This document shows positions 1,067 through 15,948 of a stretch of DNA of 15,948 bases, in pieces. Source of the stretch: a virus (lineage: Duplodnaviria > Heunggongvirae > Uroviricota > Caudoviricetes); the IMG/VR virus record IMGVR_UViG_2617271049_000005. One strand, 5' to 3'. Every line of letters starts with the position of its first letter. The first letter of the stretch is position 1. The notes below the pieces were generated by a model. The model did not search any database. It worked only from the letters and a program-made list of their open reading frames with translations, and was not told the DNA's origin. The translations under genes and the position numbers were made by a program.

Positions 1067-2839
1067 ATGACCATCACCACAGACACCACTCTTTTACACG
1101 ACCCGCGTCGTCAGGCGGCGCTGCTGTACTGGCAGGGGTTTTCCGTGCCGCAGATTGCCGCCATGTTGCAGATGAAACGTCCGACGGTGCAGAGCTGGAA
1201 ACAGCGCGACGGCTGGGACAGCGTTGCCCCCATCAGCCGTGTCGAAATGAGTCTGGAAGCGCGACTGACCCAGCTCATCATCAAACCGCAGAAAACCGGT
1301 GGTGACTTCAAGGAAATTGACCTGCTGGGACGCCAGATTGAACGACTGGCACGGGTAAACCGTTACAGTCAGACCGGCAACGAGGCAGACCTTAATCCGA
1401 ACGTCGCTAACCGCAACAAAGGCGGGCGTCGCAAACCGAAAAAGAATTTTTTCAGTGACGAGGCCATCGAAAAGCTGGAGCAGATTTTCTTTGAGCAGTC
1501 TTTCGACTATCAGTTGCACTGGTATCGCGCCGGGCTTGAGCACCGCATCCGCGATATCCTGAAATCCCGCCAGATTGGCGCGACGTTTTATTTTTCCCGC
1601 GAGGCGCTGCTGCGCGCCCTGAAAACCGGTCATAACCAGATTTTTCTGTCGGCCAGTAAAACGCAGGCGTATGTGTTCCGCGAATACATCATCGCCTTTG
1701 CCCGGCTGGTTGACGTTGACCTGACCGGTGACCCGATTGTCCTGGGCAATAACGGTGCAAAACTGATTTTTCTCGGCACCAACTCCAACACCGCGCAGAG
1801 CCATAACGGCGACCTGTACGTCGACGAGATTTTCTGGATCCCGAATTTTCAGGTACTGCGTAAGGTGGCATCAGGTATGGCCTCACAGAGTCACCTGCGT
1901 TCGACCTATTTCTCCACCCCGTCCACGCTGGCGCACGACGCCTACCCGTTCTGGTCGGGTGAACTGTTCAACCGGGGACGCGCCAGCGCCGCCGAACGCG
2001 TGGAAATCGACGTCAGTCATAACGCCCTTGCCGGTGGGCTTCTCTGTGCGGACGGCCAGTGGCGACAGATTGTCACCATTGAGGACGCCCTGAAAGGTGG
2101 CTGCACGCTGTTCGACATTGAGCAGCTCAAACGCGAAAACAGCGCCGACGATTTTAAAAACCTGTTCATGTGTGAATTTGTTGACGACAAGGCGTCGGTG
2201 TTCCCGTTCGAGGAGCTGCAACGCTGCATGGTCGACACGCTGGAAGAATGGGAAGACTATGCGCCGTTTGCCGCGAATCCGTTCGGCTCCCGCCCGGTAT
2301 GGATTGGTTACGACCCGTCACACCGTGGCGACAGTGCCGGATGCGTGGTGCTGGCACCGCCGGTGGTGGCCGGTGGCAAATTCAGAATACTTGAGCGTCA
2401 CCAGTGGAAAGGCATGGACTTTGCCACTCAGGCGGAATCCATCCGCAAACTCACCGAAAAATACAACGTCGAATACATCGGTATTGATGCCACCGGCCTC
2501 GGTGTCGGCGTGTTCCAGCTCGTGCGCTCGTTCTATCCCGCCGCGCGCGACATCCGCTACACGCCGGAAATGAAAACCGCAATGGTGCTCAAGGCAAAAG
2601 ACGTCATCCGCCGTGGCTGTCTGGAATATGACGTCAGCGCCACCGACATCACCAGCTCGTTTATGGCTATCCGCAAGACCATAACCAGCAGCGGACGCAG
2701 CGCCACCTATGAGGCCAGCCGCAGCGAGGAAGCCAGCCACGCCGACCTCGCCTGGGCGACCATGCACGCCCTGTTAAATGAGCCACTCACCGCCGGTATC
2801 AGCACCCCGCTGACATCCACCATTCTGGAGTTTTACTGA
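1067..2839 (+). CDS. P: terminase ATPase (large) subunit gpP
   Basis: ORF 1037..2839. The ATG at 1067 (MTITTDTTLL...) is preceded by GAGGT at about 6 nt and gives 590 aa, the recalled size of P2 gpP. Its stop overlaps the Q start (TGATG). Confidence 0.85.
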   Translation: MTITTDTTLLHDPRRQAALLYWQGFSVPQIAAMLQMKRPTVQSWKQRDGWDSVAPISRVEMSLEARLTQLIIKPQKTGGDFKEIDLLGRQIERLARVNRYSQTGNEADLNPNVANRNKGGRRKPKKNFFSDEAIEKLEQIFFEQSFDYQLHWYRAGLEHRIRDILKSRQIGATFYFSREALLRALKTGHNQIFLSASKTQAYVFREYIIAFARLVDVDLTGDPIVLGNNGAKLIFLGTNSNTAQSHNGDLYVDEIFWIPNFQVLRKVASGMASQSHLRSTYFSTPSTLAHDAYPFWSGELFNRGRASAAERVEIDVSHNALAGGLLCADGQWRQIVTIEDALKGGCTLFDIEQLKRENSADDFKNLFMCEFVDDKASVFPFEELQRCMVDTLEEWEDYAPFAANPFGSRPVWIGYDPSHRGDSAGCVVLAPPVVAGGKFRILERHQWKGMDFATQAESIRKLTEKYNVEYIGIDATGLGVGVFQLVRSFYPAARDIRYTPEMKTAMVLKAKDVIRRGCLEYDVSATDITSSFMAIRKTITSSGRSATYEASRSEEASHADLAWATMHALLNEPLTAGISTPLTSTILEFY

Positions 2840-3876
2840 TGAGCAAGAAAAAAGGGAAAACACCGCAACCTGCGGCAAAAAAAATGACCGCCAGCGCCCC
2901 GAAAATGGAGGCATTCACCTTTGGTGAGCCGGTGCCGGTACTCGACCGCCGTGACATTCTGGATTACGTCGAGTGCATCAGTAACGGCAGATGGTATGAG
3001 CCGCCGGTCAGCTTTACCGGTCTGGCGAAAAGCCTGCGTGCTGCCGTGCATCACAGCTCGCCGATTTACGTCAAACGCAATATTCTGGCCTCGACATTTA
3101 TCCCGCATCCGTGGCTTTCCCAGCAGGATTTCAGCCGCTTTGTGCTGGATTTTCTGGTGTTCGGTAATGCGTTTCTGGAAAAGCGTTACAGCACCACCGG
3201 TAAGGTCATCAGACTGGAAACCTCACCGGCAAAATATACCCGCCGTGGCGTGGAGGAGGATGTTTACTGGTGGGTGCCGTCCTTCAACGAGCCGACAGCC
3301 TTCACGCCCGGCTCCGTGTTTCACCTGCTGGAGCCGGATATTAATCAGGAGCTGTACGGCCTGCCGGAATATCTCAGCGCCCTTAACTCTGCCTGGCTGA
3401 ATGAGTCGGCCACGCTGTTCCGCCGCAAGTATTACGAAAATGGCGCACATGCCGGATACATCATGTACGTCACCGATGCCGTGCAGGATCGCAACGATAT
3501 CGAAATGCTTCGCGAAAACATGGTTAAGTCGAAAGGCCGCAATAACTTTAAAAATCTGTTTCTCTATGCCCCGCAGGGGAAAGCCGACGGCATTAAAATT
3601 ATCCCGCTCAGTGAAGTGGCGACGAAGGACGATTTTTTTAATATCAAAAAAGCCAGCGCCGCAGACCTGCTGGACGCGCACCGCATCCCCTTTCAGTTGA
3701 TGGGCGGCAAGCCGGAGAACGTCGGGTCGCTGGGTGATATTGAGAAAGTGGCAAAGGTCTTTGTCCGCAATGAGCTTATCCNNNNNNNNNNACTGAACAT
3801 CGCCGCCTGCGGGCGGCTTTTTTACATCCCGTCATCACGCCCTCACACGCTCACAACCGCACAAAACACTCCTTAG
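2839..3876 (+). CDS. Q: portal protein gpQ (3' end uncertain because of N run)
   Basis: ORF 2839..3876, 345 aa including 4 X from the 10-nt N run at 3782..3791. Recalled P2 gpQ is about 344 aa. Translationally coupled to P. The frame after the N run cannot be verified; an alternative frame would stop at about 3794..3796. Confidence 0.7.
   Translation: MSKKKGKTPQPAAKKMTASAPKMEAFTFGEPVPVLDRRDILDYVECISNGRWYEPPVSFTGLAKSLRAAVHHSSPIYVKRNILASTFIPHPWLSQQDFSRFVLDFLVFGNAFLEKRYSTTGKVIRLETSPAKYTRRGVEEDVYWWVPSFNEPTAFTPGSVFHLLEPDINQELYGLPEYLSALNSAWLNESATLFRRKYYENGAHAGYIMYVTDAVQDRNDIEMLRENMVKSKGRNNFKNLFLYAPQGKADGIKIIPLSEVATKDDFFNIKKASAADLLDAHRIPFQLMGGKPENVGSLGDIEKVAKVFVRNELIXXXXLNIAACGRLFYIPSSRPHTLTTAQNTP
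3802..3823 (+). terminator. candidate intrinsic terminator (GC hairpin plus T6) near the 3' end of the Q-P operon
   Basis: GCCGCC (3802..3807), loop TGCG, GGCGGC (3812..3817), then TTTTTT (3818..3823). It lies inside the annotated Q reading frame downstream of the N run, so either the Q frame is mis-set by the gap or the hairpin sits in the last codons. Confidence 0.35.
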
Positions 3877-3965
3877 ACACACCAACGCCCCGACGCACAA
3901 TCTAAACGCCATCACGACGCGCTCAGACGCTGAAAAAATAAAATCAGCACCACCGCCAGCGCGCA

Positions 3966-3984
3966 GTGCTTTCCCCGCCTCGCC
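3966..3984. other. cos: cos site, 19-nt cohesive-end sequence
   Basis: GTGCTTTCCCCGCCTCGCC at 3966..3984 is the exact reverse complement of the P2/186 cohesive end as I recall it (GGCGAGGCGGGGAAAGCAC). Position between Q and old matches P2. Confidence 0.7.
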
Positions 3985-4178
3985 CGCCCGCTTCACGGGG
4001 CGGTTTTAATGCACCTTAATAAAACTAATGAGCCATCAGTATTTCCAGTCAAAAGCCAAGCCATATCACAGTTTCCCTTAATGCAATCTCATGCACCCTT
4101 GAATGCAACGACTATAAAATGTAAAAAAGCGTTTCGTATGAACTCATTGCATACAAATAGCACATTTAAGGAAAAATA

Positions 4179-5939
4179 ATGACTGTACGTCTTGCTTCAG
4201 TTTCAATTAGCAACTTTCGTTCTTGTAAGTCAACATCGGCTATTTTGCGCCCCTTCACTGCTTTAGTTGGTTATAATAACGCAGGAAAATCAAATATTAT
4301 CTTAGCAATTAAGTGGCTGTTAGATGGCTCTTTGATTTCAGAATCAGATGTGTACGATCCTACACACCCCGTATCCGTTGAAGGCGTTATTCAAGGTATA
4401 ACAGATGATACTCTGTCTTTGTTAACAGAAGAGAATCAACAAAAAATAGCTCCGTTTATAATTGACGGGACTCTTACCTTTGCAAGAAGACAGGAATTTA
4501 ATAAGGAAACAGGAAAAGCCAAAAAAAGTCTGGATGTATATGACGGTACCACGTGGAAGAAAAACCCTGGCGGCATAGATGGTGCAATCTCCAATATATT
4601 TCCGGAACCAATTCATATCCCTGCAATGTCTGACGCTGTCGAAGACTCAACAAAATGCAAAAACACGACCACAATAGGAAAGATACTTTCCGCAATTGTT
4701 TCTGAAATAAAACAAGAACACGAAGAAAAATTTTCAAAAAACATATCAGAAATAGGTAAATATCTTTCTCACAACGGTGAGAACAGATTAGAAAGCCTTA
4801 ATAAAATAGACTCAGGTGTAAATAAAAAAGTAAACCAATTTTTTCCTGACGTAAGTGTAAAGTTACACTTTCCCACACCGACATTAGATGAGATATTTAA
4901 ATCCGGCACTCTGAAAGTTTTTGAGTCTCGGGAAGATGAACCGGTAATGAGAGATATCAGCCGATTTGGTCACGGAACACAACGTTCCATTCAAATGGCA
5001 TTAATTCAATACCTGGCCGAAATAAAAAAAGAAAACAGCGAATCAAAAAAATCAAACACTTTGATTTTCATTGATGAACCTGAGTTATATTTACACCCTT
5101 CAGCCATTAATTCTGTCAGAGAATCACTTGTCACATTAAGTGAATCAGGGTATCAGGTTATAATATCAACTCACTCAGCCAGTATGCTTTCTGCAAAGCA
5201 TGCAGCAAATGCGATTCAGGTTTGTAAGGATTCTAATGGAACCATAGCAAGGAAGACTATATCTGAAAAAATCGAAGAATTATATAAATCTTCATCACCG
5301 CAATTGCACTCAGCATTCACGCTTTCTAATTCATCATACCTTTTATTTTCTGAAGAAGTTTTGCTTGTTGAAGGGAAAACAGAGACAAACGTTCTATATG
5401 CACTTTATAAAAAAATTAACGGACATGAACTCAACCCGAGTAAAATCTGCATTGTTGCCGTTGACGGTAAGGGTAGTTTATTTAAGATGTCACAAATCAT
5501 CAATGCCATCGGCATAAAAACAAGGATTCTAGCTGATTGTGATTTCTTATCAAATATTCTATTAACAGAGCATAAAGACTTACTTAGTACTGAATGTGAT
5601 AATCTATTGACTGCTTTGATTGAATCAATCAACTCAGGAGAGCTTAGTTTAAATACAAAAGTTACTACTTTTGAGTCATTCAAAAGCATTTCAAGCAAAG
5701 ACTTCATCAAAATATGTAACCATGAAAAAACACAAAAGCATATACATGAAATACATCAAAAATTGAAAGATAACGGAATCTATATATGGAAATCCGGTGA
5801 TATAGAGGCTGTTTATGGATTTGGTAAAAAACAAACTGAATGGGATAGTCTTTTAGATTGTTTATGTGATGAAAGCAAAGATGTTAGAGCAGTAATAAAA
5901 AAATATGATGAAATGGAAGATTTCATAAAATGGATTTAA
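4179..5939 (+). CDS. old: OLD-family ATP-dependent nuclease (ABC-type ATPase plus C-terminal TOPRIM); probable P2 Old
   Basis: 586 aa, the recalled size of P2 Old. Walker A GYNNAGKS near the N-terminus, signature-like GHGTQRS, Walker B LIFIDEPELYLHP, H-loop-like ISTHS, TOPRIM glutamate LLVEGKTE and DxD in ILADCDF. SD AAGGA 6 nt before ATG. Visibly AT-rich. Sits next to cos as old does in P2. Confidence 0.85.
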   Translation: MTVRLASVSISNFRSCKSTSAILRPFTALVGYNNAGKSNIILAIKWLLDGSLISESDVYDPTHPVSVEGVIQGITDDTLSLLTEENQQKIAPFIIDGTLTFARRQEFNKETGKAKKSLDVYDGTTWKKNPGGIDGAISNIFPEPIHIPAMSDAVEDSTKCKNTTTIGKILSAIVSEIKQEHEEKFSKNISEIGKYLSHNGENRLESLNKIDSGVNKKVNQFFPDVSVKLHFPTPTLDEIFKSGTLKVFESREDEPVMRDISRFGHGTQRSIQMALIQYLAEIKKENSESKKSNTLIFIDEPELYLHPSAINSVRESLVTLSESGYQVIISTHSASMLSAKHAANAIQVCKDSNGTIARKTISEKIEELYKSSSPQLHSAFTLSNSSYLLFSEEVLLVEGKTETNVLYALYKKINGHELNPSKICIVAVDGKGSLFKMSQIINAIGIKTRILADCDFLSNILLTEHKDLLSTECDNLLTALIESINSGELSLNTKVTTFESFKSISSKDFIKICNHEKTQKHIHEIHQKLKDNGIYIWKSGDIEAVYGFGKKQTEWDSLLDCLCDESKDVRAVIKKYDEMEDFIKWI

Positions 5940-6113
5940 CTTAATCTGATACTATTACAGCACAGTACTAAACCAATAGTGATAGGCTGTGCTTTACCCA
6001 AGGATGGTGATTTCAAAATCAGAATGTGCTATAAGTACGTCAATCTAGTAACCTAAACACACAAACAAATCAATCATTAAGATTTATAATTCTGGAATAT
6101 AAAAGGTGTTGAT

Positions 6114-6875
6114 ATGAAGAACATGGATATTGTGAAAGCTGTAAAAGATGGAATGAAAAAGTCAGCCGACGCAACTTATTTAATGGATTTCAGTTCTGGT
6201 GCAAAAATAAACACTGAATATGTAGCTACCGTATCTATAGGTCTATCGTTGTTAGAAATAAAATCTTTTCGCCATGGTGATTACAAAGTTATATTTGAGT
6301 ACCATACAAATAAATTCATTAATGCAACAGTTCCTTTATCGAAACGGTCTGACCCCCAAAAAATATTCTCAAAAAAAACTGTCAGAAAAAACACAAACAC
6401 AACAAGATCAGGCAGAATTGATATTGCCATATTGGACAGCAGACCATTTTTCGACATTCCAATATGTGCAATAGAAGTTAAAGGAAATGCCCCCTGTAAA
6501 AGTCTTTTATTTTCTGACATAAGAAGAAATCTTGAATACTTTAAACACACAGGCCCTACAGGAAATTCAAGTCTTGGCCTAGCATTAAACTGTTCATTCC
6601 ATTCATACAATGATTCAACTAAAAAAAATTACTGCACTACAATCCACCATAAGGAAGACATGATAAGGAAATTAAAAAACAAATATAAAAAATACATATC
6701 CGAATTAAATGAAGAAATTCCAGACGATATATCTGTTACAATTGATGTTTTTACAGCAGCAGAGCATTTACTATCTCCTGATGCTGACCAATATGAATAC
6801 GAATCACATATAGATGACTTACATTTGACGCTTGGCGTTATGGTTATATTCGAACGAAAATCGATACTCAATTGA
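6114..6875 (+). CDS. tin: Tin-position cargo protein with PD-(D/E)xK-like motif; probable P2 Tin
   Basis: 253 aa, about 29 kDa, which fits my recollection of P2 Tin. Very AT-rich. SD AGGTG 5 nt before ATG and a TATAAT at 6085..6090. Lies between old and orf91/A as tin does in P2. Motif RIDIAILD...ICAIEVKG (D103/D108, E121-x-K123). Identity as Tin is by synteny and size only. Confidence 0.55.
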   Translation: MKNMDIVKAVKDGMKKSADATYLMDFSSGAKINTEYVATVSIGLSLLEIKSFRHGDYKVIFEYHTNKFINATVPLSKRSDPQKIFSKKTVRKNTNTTRSGRIDIAILDSRPFFDIPICAIEVKGNAPCKSLLFSDIRRNLEYFKHTGPTGNSSLGLALNCSFHSYNDSTKKNYCTTIHHKEDMIRKLKNKYKKYISELNEEIPDDISVTIDVFTAAEHLLSPDADQYEYESHIDDLHLTLGVMVIFERKSILN

Positions 6876-6913
6876 TATCATTTGTGGCTTAGAATAATTT
6901 GCTTATTTACAAT

Positions 6914-7240
6914 TTAAAGCAAATATATTGCCACCGTTCTTCGCCTTAGATTTATAAAAAATGTGGAGGATACTGCCAGCTTGACAGTCAGCGGCAGTAT
7001 CTCACCTAGTATTCTGTGCAGCAAGACATAATCTTCCAGCCAGTCTGACAGGTCAGTAACATCTGTTATCCGGGCTTCAACCTTTCGCCCCGTAAACACA
7101 CCCTGCACCCATTCATGCAAAATCAACGTGTCCCCGCGCTCATAATTACGATCTTTTTTCCGAAACTCTGCGCGTTTCTTTCCTTCCAGTACAAGGTCGA
7201 AATATTTTGCGTGCAGCTTTACCTCGTGAATTTTTGCCAT
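6914..7240 (-). CDS. ASCH-like small protein in the P2 orf91 position, translationally coupled to A
   Basis: ATG at 7240..7238 overlaps the A stop (TGATG on the minus strand) and gives 108 aa (MAKIHEVKLHAKYFDLVLEGKKRAEFRKKD...). Contains the ASCH-type GxKxxExR signature (GKKRAEFR). The longer 120-aa ORF start lies inside A. Confidence 0.6.
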   Translation of the reverse strand: MAKIHEVKLHAKYFDLVLEGKKRAEFRKKDRNYERGDTLILHEWVQGVFTGRKVEARITDVTDLSDWLEDYVLLHRILGEILPLTVKLAVSSTFFINLRRRTVAIYLL

Positions 7241-9525
7241 CATGTCCACTCCATTACTGTTGAGAATCCCGGCCACTCATCAGCGACCGGATACGTGAAT
7301 TTTTTCCCGTCATAATTTACGGTTGCTCCACGCGCCAGCGCCTCAAGTTCCCATCGCTGAGGCCTGATACCGTTCTGAGCAAGGTCAACGCGGATACGGG
7401 TGATCTGCAATCGTTCAGACCTGGTCAGTCTGGCAGATGGTGCAATTTCATGCGGTTTTAACGGGCTTCCGTTTCTTTGCTGACGGTTTGGCGTTCTCAT
7501 GTCGTATTTTAATGCGCCCCTGAGCGCCCTCACGACCTCCGGTTCATTCCATTCAATAACACCGTCATCAACCAGATTAAGCACTGCTGCGGCGTGCTCA
7601 GAAGGTGTGGGAGCCGGTAACGAAGTATCACCACCGGTGAGCTTTCCACAGTTATTGACAGGACTCCGAGGCGCGGCGATGCCGCTTTTTAAAGTCAGAG
7701 GCTCAACGACCGGAACTTTCGGCACAATGCGCCAGTCCGTCGTTCTGGTGATATGAATATGACGCGCGCCGAGATGCGGCGCGTAAATGCCGACCACTCT
7801 CTCGACTTCTTCCTCGTACTCGTTAACTTCATCCGACGGACTACGGGCGACCCTGACAGTCTGACAATCGCGCGGGACATTTGCCCCACCCTGCGCGCTG
7901 ATATACAACGCAAAATCACCACTGTCTGCGGCGGCGCGTGCAGCCTCGACGCGCTCGTCAAACTCATCAGCAATGCTGACGCCGCGAGGCAATTTGCGTA
8001 GTTCACGGTAAGCCCCCATTGTCGGCAGACCAACCGTTTTAAATTGTGGGATGCGCCACGTTGACGCCCATGCGGTAACAGCCGCAGCAGTGTCTTTCAG
8101 CGGTCTGCCGGTATCGTTATCGAGCTGACCATCCAGTGCATAGCCATCGATGTTTTTTGAGATGTATTTCGCGATATACCCCGCAGCACCGCCCTGGTTA
8201 AGGTGTTTTGCCTGAAAACGGTTTCGCGCGGCTCCTCTTTCGTCGCCATCCTCTTTGAGCGCATAGCGACGCATGATTTCGATAATCTGGTTACGCTGGC
8301 GTGGATGACAAAAAAGCATCATATGCCAGTGCGGCGTTCCGTCGTGGTGTGGCTCGACGACACGCAAACCGTAGACCTGTAAATCATTATCCTTGAATGC
8401 CGTGCGCATCAGGCTCCAGATACGGCAGAGATAACGCTGCGCATCCTTTGGATTAAATGCCTCATCGTTCCAGCCGTGATTAAGCTGAACGGTTTTACTT
8501 TCGCCTTTTCCGACCTGACGTGTCGGGTGATACTTTGACGGCGCGGTCAGCGTGATAAACATCCCCAAATCACCCTCTGCGGCGGCGTAACGCTCAATAC
8601 CGGCAATGGTGTTCATCAGCTCCATCCGGCGAATTTCAGGATTAGAAATACTGCCCATCACCTTACTGATAAGGTCGATGCGCTCGCCGGTTTCCCTGTT
8701 TTCAAGGTCACACGATTTAAGAAATTCCAGATTTGCCTGGCGGCGTGCACGCACATCACGAATGGCATGTTTACTGGCATAAGGAGAACGGTCTTTATTC
8801 ACCTCCCCGACAGCAATCAGTAACGCCTCATGCCAGCGCATACGCTGGCCTTTGAGCTGATGAGTCCACCACTCATCGTTAAACAGACGGGCAATGGCAG
8901 AATATGCCTGCCTCGTGGTCATCTGTCCTTTACGGTATTTTTTCCAGTAAAGCGGGGAAATATTGAAAGCACGTGCAGCGCCAGCAACATGACCATAGAG
9001 GTGAGCCTGCGCCTCATCCGTAAACAGCGATTCTTTTTCGCCATGTGCATCCACCCAGGCATCGCTGAGTTCCTCATACATCATGAAAAGCTGCGATGAG
9101 ATACGGGCGGCAAACTTTTTCAGCTCCTTGTCATTCATTCCAGGCAGGCGCGCATAGTGGTCACGCTCTGCCAGAAACAGCAACGACGCGTCGGTGTTCA
9201 TTTCATGGCGCTGATTCACGCGCTCAATGCGCGGCCATAAACGACGCTGAAAAGTGGATGTGAGGAAATAAAACCCGTGCACCGGGCTTTTATTGCGCCG
9301 GATGTAGTCATAGCGTGAAGTAAACAGCGAACGCAAAAAGTAAGGCAGGCGGTTAATCGTGGATAAAACACCTTGCACCTGACGCATCTCGTCACGTGTA
9401 AGGGGTCTTTCGCGCCCGACGGCCTCGCGTGGCGCGTTCCATGCATAAGCACCGGTAAACATCTTACCGGTGCCTGCGGCAAATGCTGACGGAGGGACAA
9501 AACGCCCGGAGGCTTTAACGGCCAT
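7240..9525 (-). CDS. A: replication initiation endonuclease gpA (rolling-circle initiator)
   Basis: ORF 7240..9567. The internal ATG at 9525 (MAVKASGRFVPP...) gives 761 aa, the recalled size of P2 gpA. Largest early-operon gene, upstream of the tin/old cargo as in P2. Confidence 0.85.
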   Translation of the reverse strand: MAVKASGRFVPPSAFAAGTGKMFTGAYAWNAPREAVGRERPLTRDEMRQVQGVLSTINRLPYFLRSLFTSRYDYIRRNKSPVHGFYFLTSTFQRRLWPRIERVNQRHEMNTDASLLFLAERDHYARLPGMNDKELKKFAARISSQLFMMYEELSDAWVDAHGEKESLFTDEAQAHLYGHVAGAARAFNISPLYWKKYRKGQMTTRQAYSAIARLFNDEWWTHQLKGQRMRWHEALLIAVGEVNKDRSPYASKHAIRDVRARRQANLEFLKSCDLENRETGERIDLISKVMGSISNPEIRRMELMNTIAGIERYAAAEGDLGMFITLTAPSKYHPTRQVGKGESKTVQLNHGWNDEAFNPKDAQRYLCRIWSLMRTAFKDNDLQVYGLRVVEPHHDGTPHWHMMLFCHPRQRNQIIEIMRRYALKEDGDERGAARNRFQAKHLNQGGAAGYIAKYISKNIDGYALDGQLDNDTGRPLKDTAAAVTAWASTWRIPQFKTVGLPTMGAYRELRKLPRGVSIADEFDERVEAARAAADSGDFALYISAQGGANVPRDCQTVRVARSPSDEVNEYEEEVERVVGIYAPHLGARHIHITRTTDWRIVPKVPVVEPLTLKSGIAAPRSPVNNCGKLTGGDTSLPAPTPSEHAAAVLNLVDDGVIEWNEPEVVRALRGALKYDMRTPNRQQRNGSPLKPHEIAPSARLTRSERLQITRIRVDLAQNGIRPQRWELEALARGATVNYDGKKFTYPVADEWPGFSTVMEWT

Positions 9526-13102: not shown

Positions 13103-13182
13103 CGTTTAAGGGCTTTCAGTGGTAATTTATGCCGCTCAAACCCGCATTGTACCGTTGAAAGCCCCTACTGGTGACACCCTAA

Positions 13183-13209
13183 ATCTCCCTTACACGGGCT
13201 TATTTTTTA
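13183..13209. other. att: phage attachment core (prophage/host junction)
   Basis: AATCTCCCTTACACGGGCTTATTTTTT is the exact reverse complement of the 27-bp P2 att core as I recall it (AAAAAATAAGCCCGTGTAAGGGAGATT). It lies about 80 bp past the int stop, with host genes beyond. Confidence 0.65.
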
Positions 13210-13366
13210 TGCATAAGCCCTATCCCTGGTCACCGTCTTCCATTGACCACATCGATAGAATCCTCCTTCATAGCACGATGCCTTACACTTATCGGCATCG
13301 TGCTCCCACAGGTTCCGGCTACGCACAGCCAGAACGCGCATATTTGACGCTTACCAAAAAATATTC

Positions 13367-13684
13367 TCACTCTCCACATTTGAATGTCAGACGAGCGACG
13401 CCATGTAATCCTGCACCTTCTGTCTTCAGGTCAACTATCTGCATTTTTTTGCCCTGAGTAACACAGAAATGGGCTGCATCATTTTTTACTATATTTTCTG
13501 CACCAGATATTCTGCCCCTGGATAAAGAAGCTTCGGCTTCGGTGTAGTATTGGTTATCGAGTTTACGCTGAATATTACTTTTATATGCAAGGCCAAATTT
13601 ACCGATACTTGTCTCATCATTATGCACAGCACAACCAGACATAAGAAAAACACTAATTAATGATATAGCAGCTATCTTGTTCAC
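13367..13684 (-). CDS. yegR: small lipoprotein YegR (host)
   Basis: ORF 13367..13744. A GTG start at 13684 gives about 105 aa with a signal peptide and lipobox-like ...ISLISVFLMSGC. Sits next to yegS as in the E. coli chromosome. The ATG 5 codons upstream (110 aa) is an alternative. Confidence 0.55.
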   Translation of the reverse strand: MNKIAAISLISVFLMSGCAVHNDETSIGKFGLAYKSNIQRKLDNQYYTEAEASLSRGRISGAENIVKNDAAHFCVTQGKKMQIVDLKTEGAGLHGVARLTFKCGE

Positions 13685-14089
13685 CTCACCTTCCCCCATT
13701 AAATACCAACGACACTCTCTAGTGTTTAAATATAATAATGGCATGATTATTATAATTGAATAGGATTATAATAAATGTTCTGTACAACATTTCCTACATA
13801 AGTAGGAATTACGGACATGGAGGCCCTTCCGGGTAACTCTATGGGGGCTTTAATATATTATATTGAAGATGCCACTGTTTAGTTGAATATTAGGTATATG
13901 CTCTTTTTTGAAATTTATCGGTGGCTGCCGTTAGTATTCGCTGTCCCCATTGCAAGCTCCTGGTGGTAACCACTGAATCCTCCATACTTGAACTGACTTT
14001 TTATCCTCCGACTTTCATCCTGTTCTGACTCCACCTTTTCTTTTCTGCTCTACACTATCTACAGACCAATCATAAAGGCACATACGATC

Positions 14090-14989
14090 ATGGCAGAATT
14101 TCCCGCCAGCTTACTGATTCTTAATGGCAAAAGTACTGACAATTTACCATTGCGCGAAGCAATTATGCTGTTGCGTGAGGAAGGAATGACAATCCATGTG
14201 CGGGTCACCTGGGAGAAAGGCGATGCCGCACGATATGTAGAGGAGGCCCGGAAGTTGGGCGTCGCGACGGTGATTGCCGGTGGTGGCGATGGCACCATTA
14301 ATGAAGTTTCTACGGCGTTGATTCAGTGTGAGGGGGATGACATACCCACGCTGGGAATTTTGCCATTAGGAACCGCCAATGATTTTGCCACCAGTGTAGG
14401 GATTCCTGAGGCACTGGATAAGGCGCTGAAACTGGCAATTGCCGGTAACGCCATTGCGATAGATATGGCGCAGGTCAACAAACAAACCTGTTTTATTAAT
14501 ATGGCGACAGGCGGATTTGGGACGCGTATTACCACAGAAACGCCGGAAAAATTAAAAGCCGCGCTGGGTGGCGTCTCTTACATCATTCATGGCTTAATGC
14601 GCATGGATACTCTGCAACCGGACCGTTGTGAAATCCGCGGTGAAAACTTTCACTGGCAAGGTGACGCCCTGGTCATTGGTATTGGTAACGGGCGTCAGGC
14701 CGGTGGCGGTCAACAATTGTGCCCGAACGCGTTAATTAACGATGGCTTGCTGCAACTGCGCATTTTTACCGGCGATGAAATTCTTCCAGCTCTCGTATCA
14801 ACCTTAAAATCTGACGAAGATAACCCGAATATTATCGAAGGCGCTTCGTCGTGGTTTGATATACAAGCCCCACACGAAATCACTTTTAATCTTGATGGCG
14901 AACCGTTGAGTGGGCAAAACTTCCATATTGAAATACTTCCGGCGGCGTTGCGTTGTCGATTACCACCAGATTGTCCATTATTGCGCTAA
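14090..14989 (+). CDS. yegS: lipid kinase YegS (DAGK_cat family)
   Basis: 299 aa. N-terminus [15 protein letters not shown]... and the GGDGT motif ([13 protein letters not shown]) match E. coli YegS as recalled. Confidence 0.85.
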
Positions 14990-15027
14990 TCAAACTATTC
15001 TCTCTTGAACCAGGGAGAATCCGTAAT

Positions 15028-15061
15028 GCCGGATGCGGTGTAAACACCTTATCCGGCATAC
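15028..15061. repeat. REP (repetitive extragenic palindromic) element
   Basis: GCCGGATGCGGTGTAAACACCTTATCCGGCATAC closely resembles the E. coli REP consensus GCCGGATGCGGCGTGAACGCCTTATCCGGCCTAC. Lies between convergent yegS and gatR. Confidence 0.6.
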
Positions 15062-15070
15062 AGAACAATA

Positions 15071-15850
15071 CTACACCGTAATTAATTTTACCCGTGTCTT
15101 CTGCAATGCCAGTTTATCCACATCTGACACGGCATCATCGGTAATAATAATGTCAATTTTTTCGATTGGCAGTACCTGATTAAAACCGCGACGGTTAAAT
15201 TTCGATGAATCGAGAACGGCAATCACTTTATTAGCGGCGGTGACCATCGCCCCGCTAATCGAATAACCTTCATTAAAGGTCGTAATACCATTAACCGCAT
15301 CAATACCATCAGCACCGACAAACATTAAATCGGCATTAATATCCTGCAATGAACGCTCGGCAATGGAACCATGCATCGAGCGCGTTTTATGGCGGACCGT
15401 GCCACCGCAGACGACCAGAGTAATGTCTTTATTTTCGGAAAGGGCAAACGCTGCCGGGAGACTGTTGGTAATCACCGTGATATTTTTGGCGGTCATTAAT
15501 CCTTCGGCGATAAGCATTGTCGTACTTCCGCTGTCGAGAATAACGGTCATCCCTTCGTGGATCATTTTGACTGCCGCCTGCGCTATTCTGTTTTTTGGCG
15601 CGCTGGCGAGCTGAAATCGCTCTTTAAACCCGACTTCCTGGGTCTCGGTTTCACTATTACCGGACATTATTTTCGCCGCACCGCCATGAAAGCGCGTAAC
15701 CACACCTTTTTGTTCGAGAAAGCGCAAATCGGCACGGATTGTCGCTTCCGAGGCAGCAAATACTCCCGCCAGATCCTGAACAAGCACGGTTCCCTGTTCA
15801 TTCACTAATTGGATGATCTTATTCCTTCGCTCGAATGAATTCATCGTCAT
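15071..15850 (-). CDS. gatR: DeoR-family transcriptional repressor, galactitol operon repressor GatR-like (intact)
   Basis: 259 aa. N-terminal HTH (IIQLVNEQGTVLVQDLAGVFAASEATIRADLRFLEQKG) and DeoR C-terminal sugar-phosphate-binding domain. Adjacent to yegS as in E. coli. True start may be the second ATG (MNSFERR...). Confidence 0.75.
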   Translation of the reverse strand: MTMNSFERRNKIIQLVNEQGTVLVQDLAGVFAASEATIRADLRFLEQKGVVTRFHGGAAKIMSGNSETETQEVGFKERFQLASAPKNRIAQAAVKMIHEGMTVILDSGSTTMLIAEGLMTAKNITVITNSLPAAFALSENKDITLVVCGGTVRHKTRSMHGSIAERSLQDINADLMFVGADGIDAVNGITTFNEGYSISGAMVTAANKVIAVLDSSKFNRRGFNQVLPIEKIDIIITDDAVSDVDKLALQKTRVKLITV

Positions 15851-15948
15851 TTACCCATATTCAATTGTGGCTAGTGTAAACGAAGGGGGACCATTGGTGA
15901 ATGATCTGTTTTGCACAATACCGGGCCAGCATCTCGCTGGCCCGAGGT

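Follow-up and report, generated by a model that had tools for sequence, protein, structure and literature searches.

Tin, the product of a classic Escherichia coli abortive-infection (exclusion) gene of phage P2, very probably adopts the restriction-endonuclease fold, and a constellation of residues of catalytic type is kept almost without exception across its family. The gene was analysed in a stretch of 15,948 nucleotides from the tailed-phage record IMGVR_UViG_2617271049_000005, referred to hereafter as the window. Since a restriction-type fold combined with conserved active-site residues makes Tin probably an enzyme and not a passive poison, Tin is proposed here to be a latent metal-dependent PD-(D/E)xK nuclease that is switched on by gp32 of T-even phages, or by single-stranded DNA (ssDNA) coated with gp32, and thereby halts T4 DNA synthesis, a reading towards which the evidence leans. 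Tin serves as a reference system in screens of phage-host interactions, BASEL, old-tin cloning and PADLOC among them, and its sole mechanistic description so far is the genetic model of 1997 in which it “poisons” gp32; the fold and the fully conserved constellation make the choice between enzyme and poison directly testable.

The open reading frame (ORF) under study is P2 tin itself. The DNA from position 5900 to 7300 is 99.9% identical to the P2 genome (NC_001895), and its product shows 99.2% identity with reference Tin (NP_046797) over 253/253 residues, the sole differences being N2K and R27S, both of which fall outside the conserved core. The PADLOC hidden Markov model (HMM) for Tin (PDLC02359) was matched from position 2 to position 239, its last, with E = 3.7e-98, and no other PADLOC model matched. 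The original prediction, made from the letters of the window, had described a 253-residue protein in the position of tin; the frame is indeed open over 253 amino acids plus stop, and its product is Tin itself. That prediction also singled out RIDIAILD (residues 101-108) and ICAIEVKG (residues 117-124) as a PD-(D/E)xK signature, and both motifs lie where it placed them. Without further context, the pattern D-x(10-30)-[DE]-x-K turns up in 93% of shuffled Tin sequences and is therefore uninformative alone, so that its significance must come from conservation and structure; with hydrophobic strand context added, the same pattern occurs in 0.5% of the shuffles.

A word-indexed search retrieved 23 close homologues (41-99% identity), in whose alignment D103, E121 and K123 are invariant and D108 is replaced by Gly in about half. 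The profile of these homologues was then used in an exhaustive HMMER search over 1.84 billion cluster representatives (E <= 0.001), which yielded 195 proteins, 102 of them at E <= 1e-10 and nearly all of them single-domain proteins of 230-280 amino acids. The family thus numbers 195 or more clusters (50% identity), has no Pfam family, and was met in the sources solely under the name “hypothetical protein”; an annotation is hereby supplied for these clusters, labelled hypothetical in the databases searched. Conservation was counted over 138 full-length homologues, whose identity to Tin has a median of 26% and reaches down to about 17-20%. The sole positions invariant in all of them (138/138) are E35, E62, D103, E121, D135 and R138; K123 is kept in 137/138, and Y36, T39, G100 and I120 are each more than 90% conserved. 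Position 108 is Asp in 19/138, with Lys, Ser and Glu common there. The most distant relatives, which belong to the Bacteroidota, retain all seven of E35, E62, D103, E121, K123, D135 and R138. These alignments show that purifying selection acts strictly on the catalytic-type residues of Tin throughout a family associated with defence.

The constellation first put forward (D108, E121 and K123) is therefore to be amended: E121 and K123 hold, whereas D108, offered as the catalytic Asp and as a target for mutagenesis, is variable, the catalytic-type Asp being D103 in GRIDI, and the conserved set is larger, with E35, E62, D135 and R138 in addition. E35 may act as an auxiliary metal-binding acidic residue. 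D135 and R138 occupy what we take to be the site at which nucleases of the HsdR/RecB type carry the QxxxY helix motif.

The structure of Tin was predicted by AlphaFold2 without templates from alignments of 23 rows (model 1; predicted local distance difference test score 82.8, predicted template modelling score 0.84) and of 131 rows (model 2; 95.9 and 0.92, respectively). The order of elements is the same in both models. An N-terminal helix (residues 3-24) is followed by a helix at 35-47 with E35 at its start, a strand at 57-64 carrying E62, an excursion at 65-95, strands at 101-108 (D103) and 115-125 (E121 and K123), a helix at 129-144 (D135 and R138) and a strand at 156-166, after which a helix-strand-helix-strand extension runs up to residue 248. 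This predicted order corresponds to the restriction-endonuclease fold with its alpha-beta-beta-beta-alpha-beta core, the Asp lying on core strand 2 and the ExK on core strand 3; the alpha/beta core on which the original prediction had staked its claim is thus present in both models, and the signature that it recognised is supported by the predicted fold order together with the family-wide conservation. Structural comparison of model 1 scored highest with BglII, OkrAI and 3ijm (8.3 each; the title of the last record is “restriction endonuclease-like fold superfamily protein”), followed by BamHI (8.0), BpuSI (7.3), a DUF820 putative nuclease (7.2), BstYI and NgoMIV (7.0 each) and NucC (6.4). For model 2 the matches were OkrAI (8.1), BglII (7.7), BamHI (7.1), 3ijm (7.0), NgoMIV (6.8), BstYI (6.7) and NucC (6.7). 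A Foldseek search of model 1 against the PDB returned nothing at E <= 0.001, its weak top matches being methyltransferases, and was judged uninformative for a very divergent fold.

Searches with the Tin sequence gave no match in Pfam, nothing below E = 1 among PDB sequences, and in NCBIfam a spurious Dps match alone (E = 0.007, far below its cut-off), while PHROGs lists Tin as phrog_9821 of “unknown function”. A profile HMM of 131 family members compared with PDB sequences found nothing but a meaningless match to LytE (E = 1.7). When the 131 aligned members were scanned one by one against Pfam, the recurrent sub-threshold matches all belonged to the PDDEXK clan, namely HSDR_N_2 (5), HSDR_N (3) and VRR_NUC (2), and further such matches were to RE_TdeIII, PDDEXK_9, PDDEXK_15 and PDDEXK_4; the E values of all these lay at 0.0015-0.03. 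The N-terminal domain of HsdR (HSDR_N, PF04313), the commonest of the sub-threshold matches, is also the sole family with an in-register profile match. Using hhalign, with an HsdR profile of 100 sequences (the N-terminal domain of the HsdR encoded at locus L005 and 99 homologues), Tin 101-125 was aligned on HsdR 153-173 at E = 1.7e-4 and a probability of 49% over 21 columns only, such that D103 is paired with the PD Asp of HsdR and E121/K123 with its ExK (RIDIAIL...IPICAIEVKGN against RPDLVLF..IPVCIIECKRP); against a single HsdR sequence, E was 0.0016. The register is thus correct, but the support is at the level of the motif and does not amount to a full-domain match, and Tin differs from HsdR in having no helicase motor and in carrying D..R in place of QxxxY on the helix after ExK. 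The original prediction knew of no nuclease fold for Tin, and none is assigned in Pfam, NCBIfam, PHROGs, the annotation of the Prokaryotic Genome Annotation Pipeline (PGAP) or the literature searched, to which most subscription journals did not belong. Within these sources, two things appear to be new: the restriction fold of Tin with its explicit catalytic constellation, and the unannotated family, which extends into type I restriction-modification (R-M) operons. The tin gene and its phenotype are textbook knowledge, and Tin is best placed as a new family within an established superfamily.

The relatives of tin are found in mobile elements and defence loci. Those of gamma-proteobacteria are mobile-element cargo: at L012 the neighbours are P2-type tail genes, at L013 and L017 the gene lies in an island with AlpA, H-NS or an integrase, and at L002 it adjoins a relaxase. 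Among the loci examined outside P2, no Tin homologue is adjoined by an Old-like ATPase/TOPRIM gene, so that Tin is an autonomous one-gene module and old a separate defence system; Tin as an obligate partner of Old was considered and rejected on the same ground. The distant clade is that of the Bacteroidota (Draconibacterium, Bacteroidia, Flavobacteriales, Bacteroidaceae and Chitinophagaceae), for which a profile search of genome contigs with the Bacteroidota-clade alignment gave five loci; the same search with the close-family alignment gave no confirmed locus. In 8/11 Bacteroidota loci, the Tin-like gene lies physically inside a type I R-M operon, within the hsdM-hsdS interval (Table 1), its start usually 0-22 nt past hsdM or overlapping the hsdM stop codon. 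The operon order is half-hsdS, hsdM, the Tin-like gene, (variable defence genes), hsdS, (variable defence genes) and hsdR. Nesting at this site suggests that type I R-M loci have one more layer, as yet unexplored. Of the other three loci, L016 has the Tin-like gene by a ResIII/SNF2 helicase, L015 has it in a SIR2/DUF4145/DpnII island and L020 near a TIR protein.

Some of these loci deserve a remark of their own. The variable cargo of the R-M operons, which lies either in the hsdS-hsdR interval or upstream of hsdM, was seen to include Fic, SMODS and SLATT together with an SLFN_AlbA_2/HATPase protein, a TIR-STING protein, an SMC-like ATPase and a metallophosphatase, and these Bacteroidota type I R-M loci therefore act as integration hotspots for defence genes. 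At L016, the Tin-like gene (5656-6456) stands just downstream of that for a 1088-residue ResIII/DEAD/SNF2 helicase (1907-5173) without a recognisable HSDR_N nuclease domain, so that the nuclease may be provided in trans by the Tin-like protein. A tandem Tin paralogue was suspected at L014 and rejected, the 256-residue upstream neighbour having none of the invariant residues.

Tin is known to block all Tevenvirinae tested, and no other phage tested; it targets T4 DNA replication, and the old-tin locus has been found to be a functional defence module. According to papers citing Mosig et al. (1997), T4 escape from Tin maps to gene 32. In a sentence of Vassallo et al. 2022 (PMC9519451), of “tin and old, the former” is also recovered in a lambda-vir selection; the wording is ambiguous, in that it would extend the spectrum beyond T-even phages if tin is meant, but could just as well be an error for old, or stem from cloned fragments on which both genes lie. 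Escape through the phage protein that binds single-stranded DNA (the SSB) is likewise on record for Retron-Eco8, Hna, AbpAB and DARNA, where it is now read as a sign that the SSB, or ssDNA presented by it, activates the defence; in DARNA, ssDNA that phage SSBs present, T4 gp32 included, activates the effector nuclease without direct contact between SSB and effector. PD-(D/E)xK folds are commonly found in defence proteins.

It is in this light that the exclusion of T-even phages may be reconsidered. The prophage would express Tin as a latent metal-dependent nuclease, a single-domain enzyme whose intact active site would draw E35 from helix 1, E62 and D103 from strands 1 and 2, E121-x-K123 from strand 3 and D135/R138 from the next helix. 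Upon T-even infection, gp32 or gp32-coated ssDNA would turn Tin on, and the activated enzyme would cut nucleic acid at or near replication intermediates, whereupon T4 DNA synthesis would stop. The escape mutations in gene 32 would then mark the trigger, or a factor presenting the substrate, and not a stoichiometrically poisoned target. Licensing by gp32 is the most economical model because escape in SSB genes has since 1997 been reinterpreted, in several systems, as the loss of an activating signal. That Tin is an active metal-dependent nuclease is likely; that gp32-bound ssDNA is its trigger stands at about even chances. RNA is a less likely substrate, and from the fold we infer a DNA-cleaving or end-binding step in T-even exclusion, such as the original prediction had suggested. 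Should the proposal be correct, Tin would join the defences, growing in number, for which phage SSB, or ssDNA bound by it, is the signal of infection.

Several points weigh against this proposal. The conclusion attributed to Mosig et al. (1997) in the citing literature is that Tin poisons gp32. No sequence-profile method reached conventional significance, whether Pfam, NCBIfam or the HMM search of the PDB (none), or hhalign with its 21 columns. The clustering of the seven conserved residues in one pocket, furthermore, is a prediction from the topology of the models.

The foremost rival is accordingly the classical poison, built on a scaffold derived from a nuclease: a non-catalytic Tin would bind gp32, or cap gp32-ssDNA filaments, and so block cooperative coating of ssDNA and replication, its conserved acidic and Lys residues being needed to bind DNA or metal or to fold, as they are in some PD-(D/E)xK proteins that have lost activity. 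It has in its favour the published conclusion, as far as it is relayed by later papers, and the location of escape in gene 32; the fold evidence fits it equally, catalysis being deduced. It is nonetheless considered unlikely, since the full catalytic constellation is invariant over the 138 sequences, down to about 17-20% identity and including the homologues in Bacteroidota R-M operons. In Bacteroidota T4 gp32 cannot be the selective agent, and invariance that extends to them is the signature of an enzyme and not of a scaffold for one phage protein. A poison expressed from the prophage would also need to titrate gp32, which is very abundant in infected cells.

A second rival would make Tin a modification-dependent (type IV-like) nuclease acting on the hydroxymethylcytosine-containing or glycosylated DNA of T-even phages, with escape through gp32 as an indirect effect. 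The restriction of the spectrum to Tevenvirinae, which share hypermodified cytosines, speaks for it, as do a restriction-endonuclease fold whose best matches are type II enzymes and the lack of a methyltransferase partner in P2. The escape mutants reported, again through citing papers, nevertheless lie in gene 32 and not in DNA-modification genes; Tin is one compact domain without a separate reader domain of the SRA or DUF type; and the Bacteroidota homologues are embedded in type I systems, which are blocked by modification and follow a different logic. The ambiguous lambda-vir sentence of Vassallo et al., if it means tin, would likewise speak against a target limited to modified DNA. All in all, this explanation is quite improbable. 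Least probable of all is that the motif arose by chance on some other alpha/beta fold (a Rossmann-like one, for example), in which case Tin would stand outside the PD-(D/E)xK superfamily, set beside the conservation and the predicted fold order described above.

Comparison with known systems places the proposed nuclease apart from each of them. The type IIP enzymes BamHI, BglII, OkrAI and BstYI share the PD-(D/E)xK fold with the Tin model at 10-13% identity and without detectable sequence homology. The position of the ExK Lys is taken by Glu in BamHI and by Gln in BglII, whereas Tin has the canonical Lys. The activity of Tin is specific for phages and not for a sequence or its methylation, and no methyltransferase adjoins tin in P2, flanked in the window by old and orf91/A, or the close homologues examined; having no methyltransferase, Tin is not a BamHI-like R-M enzyme. 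NucC, an effector of type III CRISPR-Cas and of the type III cyclic-oligonucleotide-based antiphage signalling system (CBASS), also has a restriction-endonuclease fold, but its structural match to Tin lies below those of the type II enzymes and no sequence similarity between the two was detected with the PADLOC HMMs or with the family profile against the PDB. NucC is activated by cyclic triadenylate (cA3) from a partner cyclase. No CD-NTase/CBASS or type III CRISPR partner adjoins tin in P2 or in the gamma-proteobacterial homologue loci, and the SMODS or STING genes in some Bacteroidota R-M islands are variable neighbours and not a fixed Tin partner. Tin is not NucC, because it has neither a cyclase nor a CRISPR partner. 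Retron-Eco8, Hna, AbpAB and DARNA resemble Tin in that phages escape through their SSB, yet their effectors are a HEPN RNase (DARNA), a retron and helicase-nucleases, without homology to Tin by PADLOC HMMs, and their phage range is broad whereas that of Tin is T-even only.

PrrC, an anticodon nuclease, offers an analogy for the Tin-like genes nested in type I R-M operons of Bacteroidota: its gene is that of a latent nuclease nested in the type Ic R-M locus EcoprrI, and a T4 product activates the enzyme. In fold the two are unrelated, PrrC combining an ABC-type ATPase with an anticodon nuclease domain, and P2 tin does not lie beside R-M genes. The arrangement of the Tin-like gene with hsdM recalls that of PrrC in EcoprrI, and by analogy the protein may be functionally coupled to the methyltransferase complex. 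A bolder and rather doubtful extension would make Tin the founder of a widespread family of latent restriction-fold nucleases whose ancestral home is the hsdM-hsdS interval of Bacteroidota, where they would be held in check by the methyltransferase, or cooperate with it, as PrrC does, the P2 copy being free-standing and re-wired to gp32-coated ssDNA. Were it true, the “poisoning” mechanism of 1997 would be wrong and Tin would rank among the simplest known immune nucleases that sense SSB. The features discussed are collected in Table 1.

Table 1. Positions of tin, its sites and its surroundings in the window, and of Tin-like genes and embedded cargo in Bacteroidota type I R-M operons (positions within the locus named).
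Feature	Source	Positions	Strand	Remarks
tin	window	6114..6875	+	253 aa plus stop; open ORF; predicted single PD-(D/E)xK-fold domain with N-terminal helix and C-terminal alpha/beta extension
Shine-Dalgarno-like AAGGTG	window	6103..6108	+	5 nt 5' of the tin ATG; read off the sequence
E35 codon	window	6216..6218	+	N-terminus of core helix 1 (35-47); 138/138 homologues
E62 codon	window	6297..6299	+	core strand 1 (57-64); 138/138 homologues
Motif 1, RIDIAILD (residues 101-108)	window	6414..6437	+	core strand 2; D103 codon 6420-6422, invariant; D108 codon 6435-6437, variable
Motif 2, ICAIEVKG (residues 117-124)	window	6462..6485	+	inside core strand 3 (115-125); E121 codon 6474-6476; K123 codon 6480-6482
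D135...R138	window	6516..6527	+	core helix 2 (129-144), right after the ExK strand; each 138/138
old	window	4179..5939	+	ABC ATPase + TOPRIM nuclease; upstream gene of the annotated old-tin transcript
Low-GC cargo island with old and tin	window	4000..6900		30-38% GC with sharp edges; P2 backbone ~50-57% GC on either side; composition profile
Tin-like gene	L005	8001-8771		in type I R-M operon
Tin-like gene	L007	8001-8774		in type I R-M operon
Tin-like gene	L009	7001-7786		in type I R-M operon
Tin-like gene	L010	7001-7762		in type I R-M operon
Tin-like gene	L011	7001-7777		in type I R-M operon
Tin-like gene	L014	3303-4097		in type I R-M operon
Tin-like gene	L021	4401-4796		in type I R-M operon
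Tin-like gene	L022	6001-6765		in type I R-M operon
Embedded cargo	L005	10081-11160		in type I R-M operon
Embedded cargo	L007	9982-13773		in type I R-M operon
Embedded cargo	L010	7766-9594		in type I R-M operon
Embedded cargo	L011	3166-5466		in type I R-M operon
Embedded cargo	L011	9086-11833		in type I R-M operon

In the window, the gene order is that of NC_001895, with old and tin both on the plus strand and followed by orf91 and gene A, which are convergent to tin; the P2 record includes the mRNA start sites of old-tin. The guanine-cytosine (GC) content of the tin ORF is 32.9% against 47.0% for the window as a whole. The site of the old-tin island, between gpA and gpQ, is a known cos-proximal defence hotspot of P2-like phages, and the low GC content of the island is consistent with horizontally acquired cargo at that hotspot. 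To the right of int, positions 13150-15948 were recognised as core chromosome of E. coli (the region of yegS, a DeoR/GlpR-family regulator and yegR), which is found in 5425/5426 complete genomes at 95-99% identity to nearly all of them. The old/portal side of the window is joined across cos. Hence what the window represents is a P2 prophage integrated in E. coli and not the genome of a virion. The tin gene itself is rare: near-identical copies occur in 17/5426 complete E. coli genomes, always under the PGAP name “hypothetical protein”, and among 50,697 phage records it is found in P2 only, with one plasmid match besides.
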